Of a stretch of 64,000 nucleotides of DNA, positions 4,605-59,576 are shown in pieces. The position numbers were made by a program, and so were the translations under genes. The notes beneath the pieces were generated by a model. It ran no database searches, had not been told where the DNA came from, and saw only the letters and a list, made by a program, of their open reading frames with translations. Positions within the stretch are counted from its first letter, which is position 1. Each line of letters starts with the position of its first letter. Source of the stretch: an uncultured Chloroflexia bacterium (GTDB taxonomy: Bacteria; Chloroflexota; Limnocylindria; Limnocylindrales; CSP1-4); the NCBI GenBank assembly GCA_963813535.1, contig CAWEZH010000002.1, positions 1,536,001-1,600,000 on the forward strand, written 5' to 3'.

Positions 4605-4625
4605 CACCCGGCTATGCTGCCGCCC

Positions 4626-6836
4626 ATGCGCCCTGTCCACCGTCGCGCGGCCGTCGTGTCGGCCGTGCTGTTCGCGCTCGGTCTCGCCCTGCCGTCCCTC
4701 GTCGCCGCGGCGGGTCCGCCATTCCCCGATCCGGTCGATGGCCAGGCCGTCTATGACACGGCCGAGCTGTTCGAGCCGGCGACGCGCGAGCAGGCCGAGC
4801 TGATCATCGACGCCATCGAGGCGCAGACCAAGGCTGAGGTGGTCGTCTACACGCAGGCGGTCGGGCGCGACGACATCACGACCGAAGAGGCCGAGTCCCA
4901 CGCCCGCGCCCTCATGGACCAGTGGGGCGTCGGTCGGGTCGGCATCGACGACGGGCTGGTCATCCTGTTCGACCTCGACACGACCGGGATCCACGGCGAG
5001 GTGCAGCTGTTCGCCGGTCCGGGCTTCTCACGCCACCTGTCGGACGACGAGCGTCAGGCCATCTACGAGGGCACGATGTTGCCGCTGCTCGCCGAGCAGC
5101 AGTTCGACCAGGCACTCCTGGCGGCCCTGGCGGAGATCGTGAACGGGACCTTCGACGGCGCCCCACCCGAGCCGTCGGGTGGACCGGCCGACACGCCCGG
5201 ACCACCCTTCCCCGATCCCGAGGTCGACCGCGCGGTCTACGACAACGCCGGGATCTTCTCGCCAGAGGCGATCGTCCGCGCGGAGTCGACCATCGACCAG
5301 ATCGAGGCGAGGACGGCCGCCGAAGTCGTCGTCTACACCCAGTCGGTCGACTACGGCGTCACGGAGGACGAGACCGAGGCGCGCGCCATCGCGTTGATCG
5401 ATCAATGGGGCATCGGACGGCGCGGGTTCGACGACGGGATGGTCGTGTTCTTCGATATCGACCCGTCCGGCGAGCACGGTCAGGTCCAGCTGTATGCCGC
5501 GCCAGGTTTCCGGGCGACATACCTCACCAACGAGCAACGGCAGCGCATCTTCGAGGACGACATGGTCCCGTTCCTGGAGAACGCGGACTTCGACGGCGCC
5601 CTCGACATCGCGATGCGACGGATCGACGAAGCCGCGACGCCGGAGCACGCCAGCCTGCTCCAGCTCGGGCGTCAGATCGACGCCGTCCTGGGCCTGCTCG
5701 TGGCACCGCTCGTCTTCCTGGGGCTGTCGGGCTGGGCGTTCTTCTCCTGGCGCCGCTTTGGCAAGGACCCGGTCTACCTGGACGATCCTTCGATCCTCAT
5801 GCCGGCGCCGCCGCCGGACCTCACAGCGGCATCGGGTGCGTTCGTGATGGACGGCCATTCATCGCGCCGGGCCTTGACGACGGCCATGCTCGACCTCGCG
5901 TCGCGCGGCCAGATCTCGTTCCGCGAGGACAAGGGCCTGCTCGGGCTGTCGAACAAGGTCGGCGTCGAGACGGACCCGGCCGCCGGCGATGCCGTGGAGG
6001 AGGCGCAGCGAGCGCGCAACGCCCGCCGGCCGATCGGACCTGCCGAGCAGTACGCCCTCGGCGAATTGCGGTCGATCGGGAAGTCCGAAGGCTTCATCGA
6101 GCCCGACGAGCTGCCGAAGTTCGGAACCTCGGTGTCGGACTTCGACTCGAAGCTCGAGAACCACGTCGTCAAGGGCGGCTGGATGGTCGAGAAGCCGAGC
6201 AAGGTCGTCGCCCGCTGGATGATGAAGGGGACGCTCGCGGTGGTCGTTGGGATCGTCGCGATCGTGATCGGCGCCAACGTCCCGATCTCCGGGTTGGTCG
6301 CCGTCGGCGCAGCCGCGATCGGCGGCGGTGTCGTGATCATGCTGTTCGCCCGGAGCATGCCCCGGGTGACGATGCCCGGCGCGATGGTCCGGGCGATGCT
6401 GGCCGCCTACCGTCGGACGCTGCAGAAGACGATGGAGCAGGCGCGTTCGATGCAGCAGGTGGTCGATCAGGCCGGGCTGGCCTGGCTCGAGACGCCGGAC
6501 CAGGCGGTCGTGTGGGGCACGGCCCTCGGATTGCAAGGGGACATCGAGGGGGTGCTCAAACGCTCGCTCGATGACGTCCGCGACGCACCGCAGCTCGCAT
6601 CGTCGACCTACTTCCCGACCTGGTATCGGACGTCCGACGGATCATCGTTCGCGAGCGGCGTCGCGGGCGGCGGCGGATCGATCTTCTCGGGCTCGGCCAT
6701 GCCCGACCTCGGGGGGATGATGTCGGCGCTGGGCACGATCGGGAACTCGCCCGCGTCGTCGGGCGGCAGCGGCGGAGGCGGCTTCAGCGGCGGCTCATCG
6801 GGCGGCGGCGGAGGCGGCGCCGGCGGCGGCTTCTAG
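4626..6836 (+). CDS. Membrane protein with two tandem TPM domains, a DUF2207-like C-terminal region and a Gly-rich tail
   Basis: Signal peptide; duplicated GPPFPDP...AVYD.A..F...WG.GR...DDG unit; TM helices; GGGFSGGSSGGGGGG tail; TATGCT -10 lies 7 nt before ATG 4626. Confidence 0.85.
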   Translation: MRPVHRRAAVVSAVLFALGLALPSLVAAAGPPFPDPVDGQAVYDTAELFEPATREQAELIIDAIEAQTKAEVVVYTQAVGRDDITTEEAESHARALMDQWGVGRVGIDDGLVILFDLDTTGIHGEVQLFAGPGFSRHLSDDERQAIYEGTMLPLLAEQQFDQALLAALAEIVNGTFDGAPPEPSGGPADTPGPPFPDPEVDRAVYDNAGIFSPEAIVRAESTIDQIEARTAAEVVVYTQSVDYGVTEDETEARAIALIDQWGIGRRGFDDGMVVFFDIDPSGEHGQVQLYAAPGFRATYLTNEQRQRIFEDDMVPFLENADFDGALDIAMRRIDEAATPEHASLLQLGRQIDAVLGLLVAPLVFLGLSGWAFFSWRRFGKDPVYLDDPSILMPAPPPDLTAASGAFVMDGHSSRRALTTAMLDLASRGQISFREDKGLLGLSNKVGVETDPAAGDAVEEAQRARNARRPIGPAEQYALGELRSIGKSEGFIEPDELPKFGTSVSDFDSKLENHVVKGGWMVEKPSKVVARWMMKGTLAVVVGIVAIVIGANVPISGLVAVGAAAIGGGVVIMLFARSMPRVTMPGAMVRAMLAAYRRTLQKTMEQARSMQQVVDQAGLAWLETPDQAVVWGTALGLQGDIEGVLKRSLDDVRDAPQLASSTYFPTWYRTSDGSSFASGVAGGGGSIFSGSAMPDLGGMMSALGTIGNSPASSGGSGGGGFSGGSSGGGGGGAGGGF

Positions 6837-6880: not shown

Positions 6881-7119
6881 TCGGTCATGGGGTGACCGAA
6901 CGGACCGATGAGCCGCGGTCCGATGGCCTCCGCGAGCCGTTCGTTCGCCGGTTCGGTCATGGGGTGACCGAACGGACCGATGAGCCGCGGTCCGATGGCC
7001 TCCGCGAGCCGTTCGTTCGCCGGTTCGGTCATGGGGTGACCGAACGGACCGATGAGCCGCGGTCCGATGGCCTCCGCGAGCCGTTCGTTCGCCGGTTCGG
7101 TCATGGCGTGACCGAACGG
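6881..7119. repeat. 72-bp-period repeat-spacer array: 37-bp repeat GTTCGTTCGCCGGTTCGGTCATGGGGTGACCGAACGG with three identical 35-bp spacers
   Basis: Partial repeat 6881-6903; full repeats at 6939, 7011 and 7083. Each contains the hairpin GTTCGGTCA-N5-TGACCGAAC. Lies between convergent genes. Confidence 0.95.
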
Positions 7120-7126
7120 ATAGCCG

Positions 7127-7795
7127 TCAGAGCCCGAACATCTCCCGGCAGGCCTCGAAGCCATCGATGACCACCTTCGGCCGGGGCCGCGAGCGCCAGG
7201 CCTCGGCCGTCATCCGGAAGCGCTGCGTCTCGCGTGACACGCCGCGCGGGGCCAGCACGCCGCGGCCGTCGTCCTCGTAGCCGAGCGACCGCGACACCGC
7301 GATCGACGCGCTGTTGTCGAAGAAGGCCGACGACGTCGCCGCGCGCGCCTCCAATGCGTCGAACGCGAAGGACAGGACGGCGGAGCGCATCTCCTTGCCG
7401 AAACCCTGGCCCTGGTGGGCCAGTCCGAGCCACGAACCGGTGTCGACGACGCGATGGACCGCGAAGTCCTCACCTGAGATCGTCTGCGCGCCGATCGGGC
7501 GGCCGTCCCGCTCGACCATGAGGTTGAGCCACCACTCATCGCGCCGCCAGATGCCGCGCCACCGCCAGTGGTGCTGGACGTAGCCGCGGTCGAAGTCCGC
7601 GCCCTTCGCATCGGTCCAGGCGACACCGAACGGCATCTCGTCGGGTGGGTGGATGCCGCCCTTCGCGAGCTCGAGCATCGCGGTCAGGTCGTCGTCGGTC
7701 GGCAGGCGTAGAACGAGGTTCTCTGAGCGGATCCGTAGCCCGAAGAGCGGCCACGCGGCCTCGAGCGGAGTCGCTGGCGGTCCGGCGGCGGCCAT
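7127..7795 (-). CDS. GNAT acyltransferase (RimJ/RimL, Rv0802c-like)
   Basis: WPLFGLRI, GIHPPDEMPF, TGSWLG..HQGQGFGKEMR.AVL.FAFD, N.AS..VSR.LGY. Confidence 0.88.
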   Translation of the reverse strand: MAAAGPPATPLEAAWPLFGLRIRSENLVLRLPTDDDLTAMLELAKGGIHPPDEMPFGVAWTDAKGADFDRGYVQHHWRWRGIWRRDEWWLNLMVERDGRPIGAQTISGEDFAVHRVVDTGSWLGLAHQGQGFGKEMRSAVLSFAFDALEARAATSSAFFDNSASIAVSRSLGYEDDGRGVLAPRGVSRETQRFRMTAEAWRSRPRPKVVIDGFEACREMFGL

Positions 7796-9472: not shown

Positions 9473-9625
9473 CGCTGCCGATGATACCCAAGCGGAAGCG
9501 CGCGTCCCGCCCATCGGCCGCCACTCGTACGGCGTTTGACACGGCAGATGCGCGCTCGGAGACTTCGAAGCGCGTCCCGAGACGATAGGGTGGATGGCCC
9601 TCGACCCAGTGTGAGAAGGAGTCCC

Positions 9626-10057
9626 ATGTCTCGACTGACCCGTTGGTTCGCGCCGACGACGACCGCCCGGGCCCACTGCGACCTGCCGTGCGGCGTGTAC
9701 GACCCCGAGCAGGCTCGCATCGAAGCCGAGTCCTGCCACAAGATCCTGGAGAAGTACGCCGCGAACGAGGATGCGACGTTCCGCGACCGGGCGATCCTGA
9801 TCAAGGAGCGCCAGGCGGACCTCGTCAAGCATCACCTCGACGTCCTGTGGCACGACTACTTCAAGCCCGAGCACCTCGAGGCCGTGCCGAACCTGCACGA
9901 GCTGTTCTGGAACGCGAACAAGCAGGTCTCGAAGGTCAAGGCCTCGACGGACACAGCCGATAGCAAGAAGCTGCTCGAGATGATCGACGAGGTCGACGCC
10001 GCCTGGAAGGCGACCGGCGGACCGGACAAGACACGCGTCGCCGGTCGGCCCGGCTGA
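9626..10057 (+). CDS. sodN: Nickel superoxide dismutase precursor
   Basis: Ni-hook HCDLPCGVYDP after a 16-aa leader; KHHL.VLW.DYFKPEH; AAGGAG SD. Confidence 0.97.
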   Translation: MSRLTRWFAPTTTARAHCDLPCGVYDPEQARIEAESCHKILEKYAANEDATFRDRAILIKERQADLVKHHLDVLWHDYFKPEHLEAVPNLHELFWNANKQVSKVKASTDTADSKKLLEMIDEVDAAWKATGGPDKTRVAGRPG

Positions 10058-10068
10058 ACTCAGTCCTG

Positions 10069-10554
10069 ATGCGCATCCCGAGGCCCCGCCGAACGGCGGG
10101 GCCTCGTCGCAGGGAGCGTCTCCGTCACCGCTTGCGCGGCCCGTGGCGCATCGCGATCCAGCAGGCCAGCATGGAGCCGACGATCCGCGAGGGTGACTGG
10201 CTGCTGGTCGACCCCACGACCGCTCGGTGGCCGAGGCGCGGGTCGATCGTGGCGTTCCACGAGCCGGATACCGGTGCGCTCGCCGTCAAACGCGTCGCTG
10301 GTACGCCGGGCGACCGCGTCCCGTTCAGGGACGGTTATCTCGAGCTGGCCGACGATGAAGCCTGGCTCGTCGCGGACGCCGACCCCGAGACCGCGGCGGC
10401 CACGGGACACGGCGACCCGATCGACTCGAACCGCTTCGGCCCGGTCCCGGTCGAGCTGCTCGTCGGGCGGGTGTGGTTCCGCTATGCGCCGCTTGGTCGT
10501 GTGGGACCGCTCAGGCGACGACCGGTGCCGCCCGACCTTCCGTCGTCAGGCTGA
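10069..10554 (+). CDS. sodX: Ni-SOD maturation protease (S26 family); true start may be further downstream
   Basis: SMEPTIREGDWLLV, VKRV (Ser-Lys dyad), DS..FGPV; adjacent to sodN. Confidence 0.85.
   Translation: MRIPRPRRTAGPRRRERLRHRLRGPWRIAIQQASMEPTIREGDWLLVDPTTARWPRRGSIVAFHEPDTGALAVKRVAGTPGDRVPFRDGYLELADDEAWLVADADPETAAATGHGDPIDSNRFGPVPVELLVGRVWFRYAPLGRVGPLRRRPVPPDLPSSG
10080..10105 (+). terminator. Strong hairpin downstream of sodN (terminator or mRNA-stabiliser)
   Basis: GAGGCCCCGCC-GAAC-GGCGGGGCCTC, 11-bp perfect stem 22 nt after the sodN stop; no U-tract. Confidence 0.5.
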
Positions 10555-37639: not shown

Positions 37640-37966
37640 TCAGCGATGGTATTCGAGGTTGGGTCCCATGCGCTCACGCAGGAACATCGAGTGGTGGCGT
37701 TCGAAGATCCACTCGCCGGCCCGATGGCCAAGCGCCCTGGTCGCCTCGTCGGCCTCGAGCTTGTCGAGCGTCCCATAGTCGGGCAGGTCGAGCAGGATGA
37801 CGTTGTCGAAGTCCCAGCCATGGGCGACGTTGTACCAGCCGATGAACCGGATCCCGAACCGCTCCTCGTATTCCTTCACCTGGCGCGGGAAGATCGTGCG
37901 CATGAAGAACTTGAAGAACGGGTCGCGGCCTCGGCGGACGGAGAAATAGGTCGCGAGAACGGGCAT
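37640..37966 (-). CDS. Small hypothetical protein (possible NIPSNAP-like dimeric alpha-beta barrel)
   Basis: GIRFIGWY....GW.FDNVILLDLPDY..LDKL; strong codon bias; CACAAT -10-like element upstream. Confidence 0.75.
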   Translation of the reverse strand: MPVLATYFSVRRGRDPFFKFFMRTIFPRQVKEYEERFGIRFIGWYNVAHGWDFDNVILLDLPDYGTLDKLEADEATRALGHRAGEWIFERHHSMFLRERMGPNLEYHR

Positions 37967-38048: not shown

Positions 38049-38215
38049 TCGGTCACCCGGTGACCGAACGGGCGGTCAAGCGCTCGCCGCTGGCTCGATC
38101 CCGCTGGTTCGTTCGACGGTTCGGTCACGGGTTGACCAAGACGGTGCCTATACCTCAGCCGGAGGGTCGTCGGGTCCCGTTCGTTCGTCCATTCGGTCAC
38201 CCGGTGACGCGCCGG
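38049..38215. repeat. Second 72-bp-period repeat-spacer array (same repeat family as 6881-7119, distinct spacers)
   Basis: Partial repeat 38049-38071; repeats at 38107 (GTTCGTTCGACGGTTCGGTCACGGGTTGACC) and 38179 (GTTCGTTCGTCCATTCGGTCACCCGGTGAC); unrelated 35-bp spacers at 38072-38106 and 38144-38178. Confidence 0.85.
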
Positions 38216-38600
38216 CCGCCGAGCGACTCTCATCCTCGAGCTCGCCGACGGTCTTGCTGCCGCTCGCCATCGGTCGGCGGCGGCTGCGACGGTCGGCCGC
38301 CACCAATCGAAGCAGGAAGATGATCGTCTGGCCGGTCGTCAGCAGGAGCCCGATCACGACGAACAGCAGGATGGCGCTGACCGCCTCCGGCCAATGCCAC
38401 ATCGCGCTCAGTGGCGTCAGGACGATGAAGATCGCCAGCACGATGAGCTGGAACCGGAAGCAGCCGAGGCCGGGGCCGCGTTCAGCCTCGAGGTCGGCGC
38501 CTTTGTACTGGACGGGCCCCGTCGAGCGGGGCGGCCGTGGCGGCGTCGGGTCGGCGTCCGGGCCTGTCGGCGGGTCGGCGCTGGATTCGGGTCCGGTCAC
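38148..38600 (-). CDS. Small two-TM membrane protein
   Basis: Two hydrophobic helices after GPGLGCF; TATCGT -10 before GTG 38600; 3' end runs into the repeat array. Confidence 0.7.
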   Translation of the reverse strand: MTGPESSADPPTGPDADPTPPRPPRSTGPVQYKGADLEAERGPGLGCFRFQLIVLAIFIVLTPLSAMWHWPEAVSAILLFVVIGLLLTTGQTIIFLLRLVAADRRSRRRPMASGSKTVGELEDESRSAAGASPGDRMDERTGPDDPPAEV

Positions 38601-53781: not shown

Positions 53782-56700
53782 TCAGGTCGACGGTTCCGCC
53801 GCCGGCTCGAGGGTCGTGCTCCTCCGCCCGATCCGTGAGACGCGCACCTTCAGACCGTCGATCAGCGAGTACACGGCAGGGATGACGAGCAGGGTCAGGA
53901 ACGTCGCACTCAGGAGTCCGCCGATCACCACGGTCCCGAGCTCCGCGGCGATGATCGAGCCCTCGTTGAAGCCTGCAGCGAGGGGCACGAGCGCGAGGAT
54001 CGTGGCGATCGCGGTCATGAGGATGGGCCGGATCCGTGTCCGGCCGCCCTCGATGAGCGCGTCCTTCGTCGAGTGGCCGTCGGCACGCAACCGCTCGACC
54101 AGATCGAGCAGCACGATGGCGTTGGTGACGACGATCCCGATGAGCATCAGGAACCCGATGAGGGCGCTGAGCCCGATGGGGCGGTTCGTGACCAACAGGG
54201 CCGGGAAGGCACCGATCGTCGCGAGCGGCAGCGTGAACAGGATGACGAACGGGGTGACGAGCGAGTTGAAGGCGAGGACCATCATCAGGTAGACGAGCAG
54301 GATCGCGACGCCCATGGCGGCGAAGAGGCCGCCGAACGCTTCACTCTGCTGCGCCGTCACGCCGGCAAGCTCGACCTGCGCGCTTGGCGGGATGGTGCCG
54401 TCGGCGCGCAGGTCGTCGATGACGCCCTGGACCGCGACCGACGTCGCGCCCGTGTCGCCGCTGGTGATCTCGGCCGAGATCGTCGCCGATGGGGCCTCGT
54501 CGATCCGGGTGATCCGTCCCTGGACGTCGGCCTGATCGACATCGGCGACGGTGTCGAGCGGGACCTTGCGCGTCATGCCGACGGGCAGATCGCGCAACGC
54601 GTCAACGGACGTGACGCTGGCGGGATCGACGCGGACGACCAGGTCGACGGGATCCGCGTCCTCGAGCTGCACGCGACCGAGTGTCTGCGGCGTCAACGCG
54701 TTGCGGACTTCACCGCCGATCTGGGCGGCGGTAGACCCGACACCGATGGCGCGACTCGGATCGACTCGCACCTGGACCTCCGGAGCGGCCTTGACGAGAT
54801 CGCTCGACAGGTTGGTCAGACCGGGCTCCTGCTCGAGTGCCACGAGGACGGCGTCGGAGGTCTCGGCGACGACGTCCGCGTCCTCGGCGCTCACGATCAG
54901 GCTGAGACCGTTCGAACTGAAACCACCCTGCTGCCCGACGGTCACTTCGAAGCCGTCGGTGCTCACGGGTGCCAGCTGATCGGCGAGCTGCTGCGTCTTC
55001 GCCTCAAGGTCGACCGACGGATCGAGGCGCACGATCATCCGGGCGCTGTTGGCGGCACGACCCTGCTGTGCGGCGAGGACGGTCTGGAAGCCGGTGTCGC
55101 CTTCGCCGGGCACGGTCGTGGCGACGAGGTCGACATCGGGGTCGGCCAGGAGGATCTCTTCAGCCTTCGCGGCCTGCTCGAGGACCTGCTCGGAGCCGGC
55201 GCCGGTCGGCGGTGCGACGGTGACCTGCAGGATCTTCTCCGAGCCCGAATCGATGAACGAGGTCGGGAGGAGCGGCACGAGTGCCAGCGAGGCAACGAAC
55301 AGCACCGCGGCGACGACGACCGTCCCGACTCGGGTCCAACGGTTGCGAAGCACGACCCGGATGGCCGGGTCGTACAAGCGCACCCAGAACGAGTTCTTGG
55401 GTTCACCGGTCTCGTCCACGGCGCCACTGACGTTCTTGACCAGGAAGTACGCGAGGACGGGGACGACCGTCAATGCCACGACGAGCGATGCGAGCAGCGC
55501 GAACGTGACGGTCAGCGAGAAGGACAGGAAGAACTGGCTGACGAACCCGCCGGCGAACCCGAGTGGCAGAAAGACAGCAACGGTGGTGAACGTGCTTGCG
55601 GTGATCGCGCTGGCGACCTCGCGCGGCCCCTCGATGACAGACGTCATCCGGTCGTGCCCGAGCGCCCGATGGCGATAGATGTTCTCGAGGACGACGATCG
55701 AATCGTCCACCACGCGCCCGATTGCCACCGCCAGGCCGCCGAGGGTCAGGATGTTCAGGGTGATCCCGGCGGCCTGCATGATCACGAGCGCTGCAAGGAT
55801 CGAGAGCGGGATGCTGACCGCCGCGACAAAGGTCGATCGCACGTTGGCCAGGAACAGGAAGATCGTGATCACGGCGAAGACGGCCCCGAGACCGCCCTCG
55901 CGCAGCAGCCCCTCGCTCGATTCGAGGATGAAGGACGACTGATCGGCGATGGTGACGATGGCGATCTCGCCGGGGTGACGCAGCGCGATCTCGTCGAGCT
56001 TGGCCTGGACCGCCTCGGCAACGGCGACGGTGTTGGCGGCGCTGGTCTTGCTGACCGAGATGGTGACGGCCGGTTGGCCGTTGGTTCGCGCATAGCCGGT
56101 CGTCGCGACGTCCGCGAGCTCGACCGACCCGAGATCGCCGATGGTGATGGGCTGGGGCACGACCGGGGTCGGGGGTGTGGTCGGGGTGGTCGGCGTCGTC
56201 GGGTGGTCGGCGTGGTCGGCGTGGTCGGGGTGGTCGGCGTCCGGACGCCGACGACGAGGTCCTCGATCTGCGCGACGGACTCGAAGCGACCGATCGTCGA
56301 TACCGGGATCTGCTCGCCGTCGACCGACAGCTGGCCACCCGGCAGCGTCAGGTTGTTGGCCTGGAGGATCCCGGTCACCTGCTGGACCGAGACGCCGGCC
56401 TCCGACAGCTTGTCTGGGTCCAGCGTGATCTCGAGTCGTGTCTCCAGGCCACCCGCGAGGTCCGCCGATGCGACGCCCGGGAGCGAGAGGATCTCGGGGA
56501 TGAGCTCTGTCCGGGCGATCTCGGCAGCCTGGTCCAGGCTGGTCTCGCCCTGGGCCGAGACCGAGGCGACGACGACCGGCGCCGCGTTGAAGTCGAAGGA
56601 GCCGACGGTCGGCTCGACGCCGTCGGGCAAGGGCGTGCTGCGGAGGTTCTCCTCGATCGTCGCGACCGCCTCGTCGAGGTTCGTGCCGTAATCGAACTGG

Positions 56701-56981
56701 GCGACCGCGAATGCGAGCGAGTTCGCCGACGTGGTCTGCAGCTGGGTCAGGCCGGGCACGCCGCTCATGGCCCGCTCGATGGGCTTGGCCACCTGCTCGG
56801 TCACGTCCGACGCGCCGGCACCGGGATACGGGGCGATGACCGAGACGACGGGGAACGAGACGTCGGGCAGGAGCTCCTGCTTGAGGCTTCCCCAGGCGGC
56901 GATGCCGGCGATGAAGAAGGCCGACGCCAGGAGGAGGGTGACGCTCCGCCGTGCGACGGCGAATCTCGTGAGGCGGCTCAT
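53782..56981 (-). CDS. RND (AcrB/SwrC-like) efflux permease; frameshift near 56200 inside a (PTT)n repeat
   Basis: ELLPD...P, YPGA, AIGRVVDDSIVVLENI, GIVVTNAIVLLD, R.RPILMT; joined from ORFs 55869..56981 and 53782..57051. Confidence 0.92.
56160..56254. repeat. Imperfect 9-bp tandem repeat (CCGACCACN on the minus strand) encoding a Pro-Thr-Thr linker
   Basis: Roughly 9-10 units; one unit is 1 nt short and causes the frameshift. Confidence 0.8.
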
Positions 56982-57472
56982 TCGGTACTCCTGGGGGTGT
57001 CAGAGGGAAGGGCGGAGGCGTCGACGGCGCGGCCCATGATCCGGGCGGCACGCACGATGACCTTCAGCTCGGCGTCGGTCATCGCGTCATACAGCGCACG
57101 GAGCTGGCGGGTGCCGAGCTCACGCAGCTGCTCGAGGCGCTCGAGTCCGAGGGCGGTGACGGAGACGTGGACCTGGCGCCGGTTGGCCGGGTCGTCGACG
57201 CGGCGCAGCAGGCCCAGGGCGACCAGGTGATCGACCGACCCGCTGGCGGTCGACACAGTCACGCCGAGTCGCTGGGCGATGTCGGACATCGTCAACTCGC
57301 GAGAGGCGGTGACCACGTACAGCAGCTTCGCCTGGGCCATCGTGATGTCGAGCGCCGCGAAATCGGGCGCATGAAGGCTCATCAACCGCCGCTGGAGGTC
57401 CTCGAACGCGTCGAGCGCGTTCTGCACCGCGGGGCGCACGTCAGGATTCGGCTTGACCATACTGTTCGGCAT
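56978..57472 (-). CDS. MarR-family regulator
   Basis: ITMAQ.K.L, MSDIA.RLGVT.ST.SG.VD.LV..GLL.R..DP.NRR.V. Confidence 0.92.
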   Translation of the reverse strand: MPNSMVKPNPDVRPAVQNALDAFEDLQRRLMSLHAPDFAALDITMAQAKLLYVVTASRELTMSDIAQRLGVTVSTASGSVDHLVALGLLRRVDDPANRRQVHVSVTALGLERLEQLRELGTRQLRALYDAMTDAELKVIVRAARIMGRAVDASALPSDTPRSTE

Positions 57473-59500: not shown

Positions 59501-59576
59501 GCGGGAGTAACTCAGTTGGCAGAGTGTCTGCTTCCCAAGCAGGATGTCGCGGGTTCGAGCCCCGTCTCCCGCTCCA
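59501..59576 (+). tRNA. tRNA-Gly (anticodon CCC)
   Basis: Acceptor stem GCGGGAG/CTCCCGC, anticodon arm with TTCCCAA loop, GGTTCGAGCCC T-arm, encoded CCA; 76 nt. Confidence 0.97.

Follow-up and report, generated by a model that had tools for sequence, protein, structure and literature searches.

The window analysed in this work is a stretch of 64,000 nt from a contig of an uncultured Chloroflexia bacterium (CAWEZH010000002.1, positions 1,536,001 to 1,600,000), in which a 37-nt repeat carrying a hairpin forms two short tandem arrays, here called array A and array B (Table 1). Array A is located between two convergent genes, encoding a TPM-domain/DUF2207 membrane protein on the plus strand and a GNAT acetyltransferase on the minus strand, and array B is located between two minus-strand genes, one of which encodes a conserved small membrane protein. 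Elsewhere the window has the content of an ordinary chromosome, with genes for pyrimidine synthesis, transporters and regulators, and a tRNA. A first-pass annotation had presented array A as a mini-array resembling a CRISPR array. The comparisons described below indicate that arrays A and B are very probably an interspersed hairpin minisatellite of the kind represented by repetitive extragenic palindromic (REP) sequences and mycobacterial interspersed repetitive units (MIRU), and not a CRISPR.

Array A had been described as three full copies and one partial copy of the repeat with a 72-bp period, and this was recovered. The full 37-nt repeat, GTTCGTTCGCCGGTTCGGTCATGGGGTGACCGAACGG, matched at 6939, 7011 and 7083 (three matches in the window versus none in 100 shuffles). 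Tandem Repeats Finder (TRF) reported the region 6881-7120 with a period of 72, 3.3 copies, 99% matches and a score of 473, the only 72-bp-period array among its 70 rows for the window. The three linkers are all alike and the sole variant among the full repeats, a G->C change at 7107, falls in the hairpin loop of A3; the identical intervening sequence, the hairpin with a 9-bp stem and a 5-nt loop, and the variant confined to the loop had all been read correctly. The window stem, GTTCGGTCA/TGACCGAAC, can also be drawn as 10 bp closed by a U.G pair around a triloop. The predicted folding energy of the array A hairpin in RNA form is -15.9 kcal/mol on the plus strand and -13.4 kcal/mol on the minus strand, and the array A copies scored 54-69 bits with a covariance model of the box and hairpin. 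A second hairpin (CGGACCG...CGGTCCG) lies in the array A linker, for which RNAalifold found no conserved position.

The reported recurrence of the repeat 31 kb away, with the same period and different linkers, was also confirmed: box and hairpin lie at 38107 and 38179, preceded at 38049 by a copy that has only the hairpin. The start-to-start spacings of the window copies are 72, 72, 72, 31024 and 72, and relaxed patterns gave 5 and 6 matches in the window versus 0.00 and 0.01 expected. Compared with the reference repeat of array A, the two repeat copies of array B show 90% and 77% identity. No further box and hairpin copies were detected in the window with the covariance model, whose next best hit was at 56777-56862 (22.8 bits, E=0.057).

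Table 1. Coordinates of the two arrays, their repeat copies and the adjoining genes, numbered from the first letter of the window.
Feature	Position	Strand	Remarks
Array A	6881..7119	+	hairpin-only first copy, then three full 72-bp units (box, hairpin and linker); from TRF, sequence reading and covariance model
A0	6881..6903	+	hairpin with post-hairpin CGG, without upstream box GTTCGTTCG; left element boundary
A1	6939..6975	+	full 37-nt repeat (box GTTCGTTCG, N4, hairpin); 0 mismatches
A2	7011..7047	+	full 37-nt repeat; 0 mismatches
A3	7083..7119	+	full 37-nt repeat; 1 mismatch; ends 7 nt before GNAT stop codon (minus strand)
Array A linker, 35 nt	6904-6938, 6976-7010, 7048-7082	+	all three identical
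TPM-domain/DUF2207 membrane protein gene	4614..6836	+	stop 44 nt upstream of array A
GNAT acetyltransferase gene	7127..7795	-	convergent with TPM gene; array A begins 7 nt beyond stop
Array B	38049..38215	+	hairpin-only B0, then B1 and B2; period 72, differing linkers
B0	38049-38071	+	hairpin-only copy; -15.1 kcal/mol
B1	38107-38143	+	box and hairpin, hairpin decayed; -7.0 kcal/mol
B2	38179-38215	+	box and hairpin, hairpin decayed; -8.2 kcal/mol
Conserved small membrane protein gene, 150 aa (P0014)	38148..38600	-	last ~22 codons from B2 and the B1-B2 linker
108-aa gene without Pfam family	37640..37966	-	immediately downstream (minus strand) of array B

A scan of 185,579 species genomes with the DNA pattern GTTCGTTCG-N4-TTCGGTCA-N5-TGAC found six loci (L001-L006), five of them in three metagenome-assembled genomes (MAGs) titled 'uncultured Chloroflexia bacterium'. 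None of these loci has the triple match of the window, indicating that its source genome is outside the scanned collection. The sixth locus, L005 in a Clostridia MAG, was rejected as a chance match, being a single copy in an apparent coding sequence with no second hairpin and a score of 22.1 bits. No flanking genes are shared between the loci, except for L002 and L006, which are one locus on two contigs of one bin, with the gene order HflX-MiaA-radical SAM-TerC-[array]-PHP-RNase Y-RecX. The unrelated flanking genes indicate that the family is dispersed at non-homologous intergenic sites and is not syntenic. Further copies exist in other genomes, and the 72-bp spacing recurs in L001 and L003. 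The proposal of a dispersed family resembling REP sequences and bacterial interspersed mosaic elements (BIMEs), locally amplified in the window, is upheld by these copies at non-homologous intergenic sites.

Other tandem repeats were observed at some of these loci. A 23-bp minisatellite (ATGGGATGACCGGGGCGCGACCG) grows from the right half of the family hairpin at L006:5021-5384 and L002:4614-5010, with 15.8 copies in L006 and 17.3 in L002, and the macro-repeat spacings at L002 and L006 are 223 vs 522 bp. The difference between the two satellites looks like variable-number tandem repeat (VNTR) variation at the strain or haplotype level. By tblastn, the L002 TerC protein matches L006 in three separate pieces, a sign of frameshifts or assembly errors. 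At L004:5064-5214, the family element is directly followed by an unrelated tandem repeat of 52 bp (2.9 copies, 94% matches), and the intergenic regions holding the element seem to be prone to other minisatellites.

Alignment of the copies revealed a unit of ~72 bp with four segments: a conserved box (CCGTTCGTTCG-N3/4); a hairpin with a stem of 9-10 bp, (G)TTCGGTCA-YNNNR-TGACCGAA(C); ~15 semi-conserved nt (CGGACSGNTGAGC); and ~20 unconstrained nt. All the arrays start with a hairpin that lacks the outer arm and the box, and all end with a hairpin whose outer arm decays past TGACCGA. These truncated first and last hairpins imply that the element spans TCGGTCA to TGACCGA, its minimal form being two hairpins 72 bp apart. 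Hairpins are spaced at 72 bp in both window arrays, in L001 (three hairpins; TRF period 72, 84% matches) and in L003 (two hairpins); in L004 the spacings are 61+61 bp, and in L002/L006 they are 61+71 bp. The GGTCA/TGACC arms are invariant or nearly so across 19 aligned hairpins. Relative to the box, the loops occur in both orientations: the window has TGGGG, L001 has CCCCA, and other hairpins have CCCGG or CCGGG. The loops TGGGG and CCCCA (window 6955-6969 and L001:5000-5014), like CCCGG and CCGGG, are exact reverse complements with the same box orientation, the signature of loop inversion in a hairpin or cruciform.

Conservation is distributed unevenly along the unit. In 13 between-locus pairs of six 72-nt units from four loci, identity was 0.82 for the box and 0.78 for the hairpin, 0.51 for the next 17 nt after the hairpin and 0.34 for the middle 19 nt of the linker, with a background of 0.28 +- 0.11 for random 19-mers. 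The same division is seen in the array A linker, in which the first ~15 nt are semi-conserved between loci and the middle ~19 nt are not. According to these identities, the '35-nt spacer' consists of ~15 nt of the conserved unit plus ~20 nt of free sequence. The true boundary between repeat and spacer that the first-pass annotation had drawn from the differing linkers of the two arrays does not hold, since the 'spacer' belongs to the unit and its post-hairpin part is 51% identical between loci vs 28% in the background.

Array B is partly contained in a gene. Its membrane protein, P0014, has 4726 homologues, and the tails of 15 of the 120 listed homologues (the top eight and seven others) were aligned. 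The tail motif SPGDR[T/M]D.R, which is the translation of the loop, arm and box of B2, was present in nine of the 15, down to 74% identity, and this B2-encoded stretch is nearly invariant in those nine homologues while the adjacent tail residues vary. P0019 and P0020 carry a second copy, SPRDRI[D/E]E, exactly 24 residues after the first motif, and the six more distant aligned homologues have unrelated tails. The retention of the B2-encoded tail in homologues shows that array B is old and vertically inherited. The tail SPGDRTDER (38148-38215), found in close homologues and absent from distant ones, is an example of a repeat element as the source of a protein C-terminus. At the other end of the protein, the N-termini of P0014-P0020 (window ~38540-38600) differ in length among close homologues through Pro/Asp-rich insertions such as DPTPVPDAHADPTPG.

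Array translations were used as protein queries because repeats of this kind are often predicted as open reading frames (ORFs) by gene callers. Of 7999 scored candidates, one, the partial ORF P0001, matched the ORF on the minus strand of array A. P0001 reads ...MTEPANERLAEVIDPRLVGPFGHP / TNEPENERLAEATDPPLVGLFGHP... and ends in the arginine-rich antisense of the Gly-rich tail of the TPM gene, and for this reason it is the syntenic array of a relative. Its linker is the same as that of array A, and its units have diverged from each other. A plus-frame profile gave 12 matches in 1.84 billion representative proteins, of which seven (P0003-P0007, P0011 and P0013) were judged to be translated arrays of this family and five to be unrelated repeat proteins. 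A 24-residue period was found in six of the seven, a count that is biased towards this period by the 24-residue period of the query profile itself; in these six, linkers resemble each other inside an array but not from one array to another. When 5.8 billion proteins were searched with a word index, five matches were returned, with P0134 as the only addition, so that the family core was found in eight further translated metagenome ORFs; the family is rare among predicted proteins in public data. One of these ORFs, P0003, carries the source annotation 'transaldolase', a label that is probably an annotation error caused by the repeat.

These comparisons bear directly on the CRISPR-like headline, under which the arrays would be orphan or degenerate mini-arrays with 37-nt palindromic repeats and 35-nt spacers, served by a cas system encoded elsewhere. 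The geometry of 37/35 nt with an exact period, the partly palindromic repeat and the differing intervening sequences of array B and L001 would all suit a CRISPR, and the repeats of array A are near-identical (36-37/37 nt). In array B, however, the repeats have fallen to 90% and 77% identity with the array A reference repeat and their hairpins are decayed. Spacers are not unique: the three of array A are identical, linkers are alike within six other arrays (including those translated as P0003-P0007), and the syntenic array P0001 retains the array A linker. The first third of the spacer is moreover conserved between loci, and array B lies partly within a conserved gene. With linkers that are repeated within arrays, partly conserved between loci and inherited in synteny, the headline had to be abandoned.

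The search for associated genes and for targets did not favour a CRISPR either. Pfam scans found no Cas, transposase or integrase family among the 74 ORF translations of the window, in agreement with the absence of a cas gene noted before, and none in 34 ORFs within +-5 kb of L001-L004 and L006. Among the same ORFs there was no REP-associated tyrosine transposase (RAYT, of the IS200/IS605 Y1 type), which is normally a single gene elsewhere in the genome. Searches for phage protospacers returned only 26-nt matches at E~0.9 for array A and none for array B, and those for plasmid protospacers none for array A and two matches at E=0.05 for array B; no phage or plasmid match is above chance. The reading of the arrays as orphan CRISPRs is close to refuted.

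The organisation of the family can be compared with two known systems of interspersed repeats. In the passages cited here, MIRUs are described as 40-100-bp tandem units at several dozen or fewer intergenic loci, with G+C-rich inverted repeats and open frames running through the units; they lie between genes that share direction and transcript, and their ends overlap the adjoining ORFs (PMC3184786). The Chloroflexia family shares with them a 72-bp tandem unit at dispersed intergenic loci (the two window loci, L001 and L003, with variants in L004 and L002/L006), G+C-rich inverted repeats inside the unit, open frames through the units and a copy number that varies between loci, and array B extends into the membrane-protein gene at its 3' end. 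The likeness is one of organisation only. The family differs in its phylum, in the sharply bipartite conservation of core and free linker, in its strong perfect hairpin and in the lack of tetranucleotide direct repeats at the ends of the element.

Likeness to REP sequences and BIMEs lies in the short G+C-rich extragenic palindromes (stems of 9-10 bp), clustered with linkers of fixed length, in the conserved motif on one side of the stem and in the location downstream of genes and between convergent genes. BIME copies alternate in orientation, whereas the Chloroflexia copies are all in direct orientation. REP copy number is usually tens to hundreds per genome, and here it is apparently low, with no RAYT in the window or near the five related loci. 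One source defines REP sequences by a tetranucleotide tag, either GTAG or CGTC, next to the stem at one end (PMC3733652); neither tag occurs in the 19 aligned hairpins, whose flank is CCGTTCGTTCG-N3/4 and whose stems begin with GTTCGG. For the small-RNA arrays that the first-pass annotation had named as an alternative, no match to a known RNA family was found: at the gathering threshold, Rfam detected only a tRNA (59501-59573) in the whole window, and a permissive search of loci A and B gave no family above chance. The literature searched yielded no account of the motif or of repeats of this sort in Chloroflexi, and the 15-nt hairpin string had 0 occurrences in the 10 papers listed. By its organisation, the family can be classed as an interspersed palindromic minisatellite of REP/BIME and MIRU type.

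All six independent loci lie between genes or at a gene's 3' end. In each of them (6/6), the last hairpin is followed by the 3' end of a gene that is encoded on the opposite strand to the box, often with 7-25 nt from the last hairpin to that stop codon, and the other side of the element faces a 3' end in three loci and a gene 5' end in three. Array A begins 7 nt past the GNAT stop codon and would accordingly fall in the GNAT 3' untranslated region. REP sequences are reported, in the portions of the two sources cited, to lie mostly downstream of coding regions and between convergent genes and to affect mRNA stability, and their proposed roles include termination and mRNA stabilisation (PMC3733652, PMC3184786). 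As the element shows the placement past stop codons reported for REPs, a role as a 3'-end hairpin is the favoured one, though it is a tentative assignment held at somewhat less than even confidence.

The 3' ends of other genes in the window provide a setting for such a role. Canonical U-tract terminators were not enriched in the 1-20 kb region of the window (4 vs 4.3 in shuffles), and the 70 nt past stop codons were more stable than gene interiors (-27.8 vs -25.2 kcal/mol, 46 genes, Wilcoxon p=0.027), with unique GC hairpins lacking a U tract directly after several stop codons. This suggests that terminators without a U tract are the norm here, and a hairpin of -13 to -16 kcal/mol after a stop codon fits the niche of such 3'-end hairpins. 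One example is found at 10058-10127, directly after the Ni-superoxide dismutase gene (9536-10057), where a GC-rich hairpin (GAGGCCCCGCC...GGCGGGGCCTC) is near-perfect and lacks a U tract.

Taken as a whole, the explanation that we consider best, and on balance slightly probable, is a lineage-restricted minisatellite like REP and MIRU that expands by slippage and serves as a 3'-end hairpin. Arrays would expand and contract when the 21-bp hairpin repeats slip during replication or recombine unequally with each other. The units of array A are identical, versus diverged in its syntenic counterpart, and unit number differs between loci; with three identical units, array A probably represents a recent expansion or homogenisation of one unit. 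The core would be under constraint, given that it is ~80% identical between loci while the middle of the linker is at background. Transcripts of the gene on the opposite strand to the box would carry the element in their 3' untranslated end, where its hairpins could act as U-tract-less terminators or as barriers to 3' exonucleases that stabilise the mRNA. Between convergent genes, the hairpins would serve both genes.

Several observations weigh against this explanation. The 3'-end function is deduced from position and folding, and the count of orientations is small (6 loci, with a two-sided probability of ~0.03 if each were a coin flip). In 3/6 loci the element also lies immediately upstream of the start of a gene, which leaves room for a 5'-side role. 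No U tract follows the hairpins on either strand and the terminator scan did not flag them, and hence they do not qualify as intrinsic (Rho-independent) terminators. Stem covariation did not rise above that of the controls, with 78.5% of cells paired vs 76.3% in shuffles (51/500 shuffles reach the observed value) and double-sided stem changes in 7 pairs vs 5.2 (53/500). The palindrome is conserved mainly as sequence, which fits recognition by a protein as well as RNA structure, and since both loop orientations occur, G.U pairs select no strand. Copy number appears low for a REP family, with at most two exact-pattern loci per related MAG and two loci in the 64-kb window, although diverged copies would escape the pattern. 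Nor was a gene for dispersal, RAYT or another transposase, seen in the ORFs scanned in the window and at the related loci.

The alternative that survives best is a neutral or selfish minisatellite with no host function, spread by a mechanism that is now silent or acts in trans, in which the conserved core would derive from gene conversion or recent common origin and not from selection. We regard it as unlikely. The low and patchy copy number, the rarity in public data and the lack of any associated gene among the ORFs scanned are as such a minisatellite would have them, as are the decayed hairpins of array B (-7.0 and -8.2 kcal/mol), the other minisatellites spawned by the same sequence in L002/L006 (a 23-bp unit in 17.3 and 15.8 copies) and stem covariation that does not exceed the controls. 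It is harder to reconcile with a box and hairpin that are ~80% identical between loci and genomes while the middle of the linker is at background, with a B2-encoded stretch that is nearly invariant in nine homologues (to 74% identity) while its neighbours vary, and with the consistent orientation in 6/6 loci.

A bolder proposal, to which we give a low probability, takes the core as a selected recognition module for a dedicated, clade-specific RNA- or DNA-binding protein, set in phased direct arrays past stop codons in a group of uncultured Chloroflexia. Such a module would explain the ~80% core identity with a randomised linker, the 72-bp phasing at four loci and the fixed tail of the membrane protein. 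If true, the family would be an undescribed system of 3'-end or chromosome-organising cis-elements, not a passive repeat.

Slightly less probable still is an array of protein-binding sites acting at the DNA level, in which the palindrome TTCGGTCA-N5-TGACCGAA and the direct GTTCG repeats of the box would bind a dimeric protein, either nucleoid-associated, a segregation protein or a regulator, with 72 bp (~7 helical turns) placing the sites on one face of the helix. The arms of the 19 hairpins are conserved as sequence and not by covariation, the loop is free to vary and flip, copy number is low, and the exact 72-bp period is kept in four independent loci despite saturated linkers. However, spacings of 61 or 71 bp occur in L004 and L002/L006, the loci are all at gene 3' ends and not at promoters, no candidate binding protein was linked to the arrays among the ORFs scanned in the window and loci, and the types of closing pair (C-G, U.G and U-A) suggest that pairing matters.

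Two further possibilities have very little left in their favour. The arrays might encode small proteins with 24-residue repeats (FGHxVTE motif) on either strand: both strands of array A are open (126 aa and 92 aa), metagenome gene callers predicted such ORFs (P0001, P0003-P0007, P0013 and P0134), four loci have a period divisible by 3 and B2 is translated as the membrane-protein tail. Against coding stand the 61- and 71-bp spacings of L004 and L002/L006, a stop in the minus-type frame of L001 and a conservation that is symmetric about the palindrome and does not extend to linker-encoded residues; open frames are expected anyway at ~70% G+C.

The arrays could likewise be attC-like sites without ORFs or an integrase, with ACCGAAC and the next GTTCGGT as the R''/R' boxes of a ~67-nt site. 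The R-box consensus of attC is RYYYAAC/GTTRRRY, from which the arms depart once each, and in the RNAalifold structure each right arm is paired with the left arm that follows, and TGAGC with GTTCG; the complementarity of one arm to the next is automatic in any tandem array of palindromes. The inner pairing requires G.T pairs and shows no compensatory change, the single-stranded DNA between hairpins folds no more stably than shuffles (4 units, both strands, z -1.14 to +0.35), and no cassettes lie between the sites and no tyrosine recombinase nearby (window and loci ORFs). Integrons themselves are recorded in Chloroflexi (PMC4889954), and this stands on the side of the attC proposal, which we nevertheless rate as very improbable. 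With respect to miniature inverted-repeat transposable elements, the ends of the family element, TCGGTCA...TGACCGA, are inverted because each is half of a palindrome, and no direct repeat was seen by eye in the flanks of the six loci.

Unrelated repeats were also observed in coding sequences of the window. The TPM/DUF2207 gene contains a 158-nt direct repeat (4870-5027 and 5353-5510, 71% identity), which probably mirrors its two TPM domains, as Pfam reports TPM in two stretches. A 9-bp repeat, GTGGTCGGC, is present in 7.2 copies at 56177-56240, inside an AcrB/MMPL-type transporter ORF (53782-57051, minus strand).

The assignment of the arrays to a REP/MIRU-type hairpin minisatellite removes a false CRISPR lead and documents such a family in a poorly studied, uncultured Chloroflexia lineage, in which the constrained core is separated from the free linker with unusual clarity. 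For strain typing in metagenomes, such arrays offer natural VNTR markers; they are also a likely cause of assembly breaks and give rise to spurious 'hypothetical proteins'. Should the core turn out to be a terminator or stabiliser, it would open a way to study transcript termination and protection in high-G+C bacteria that lack U-tract terminators.

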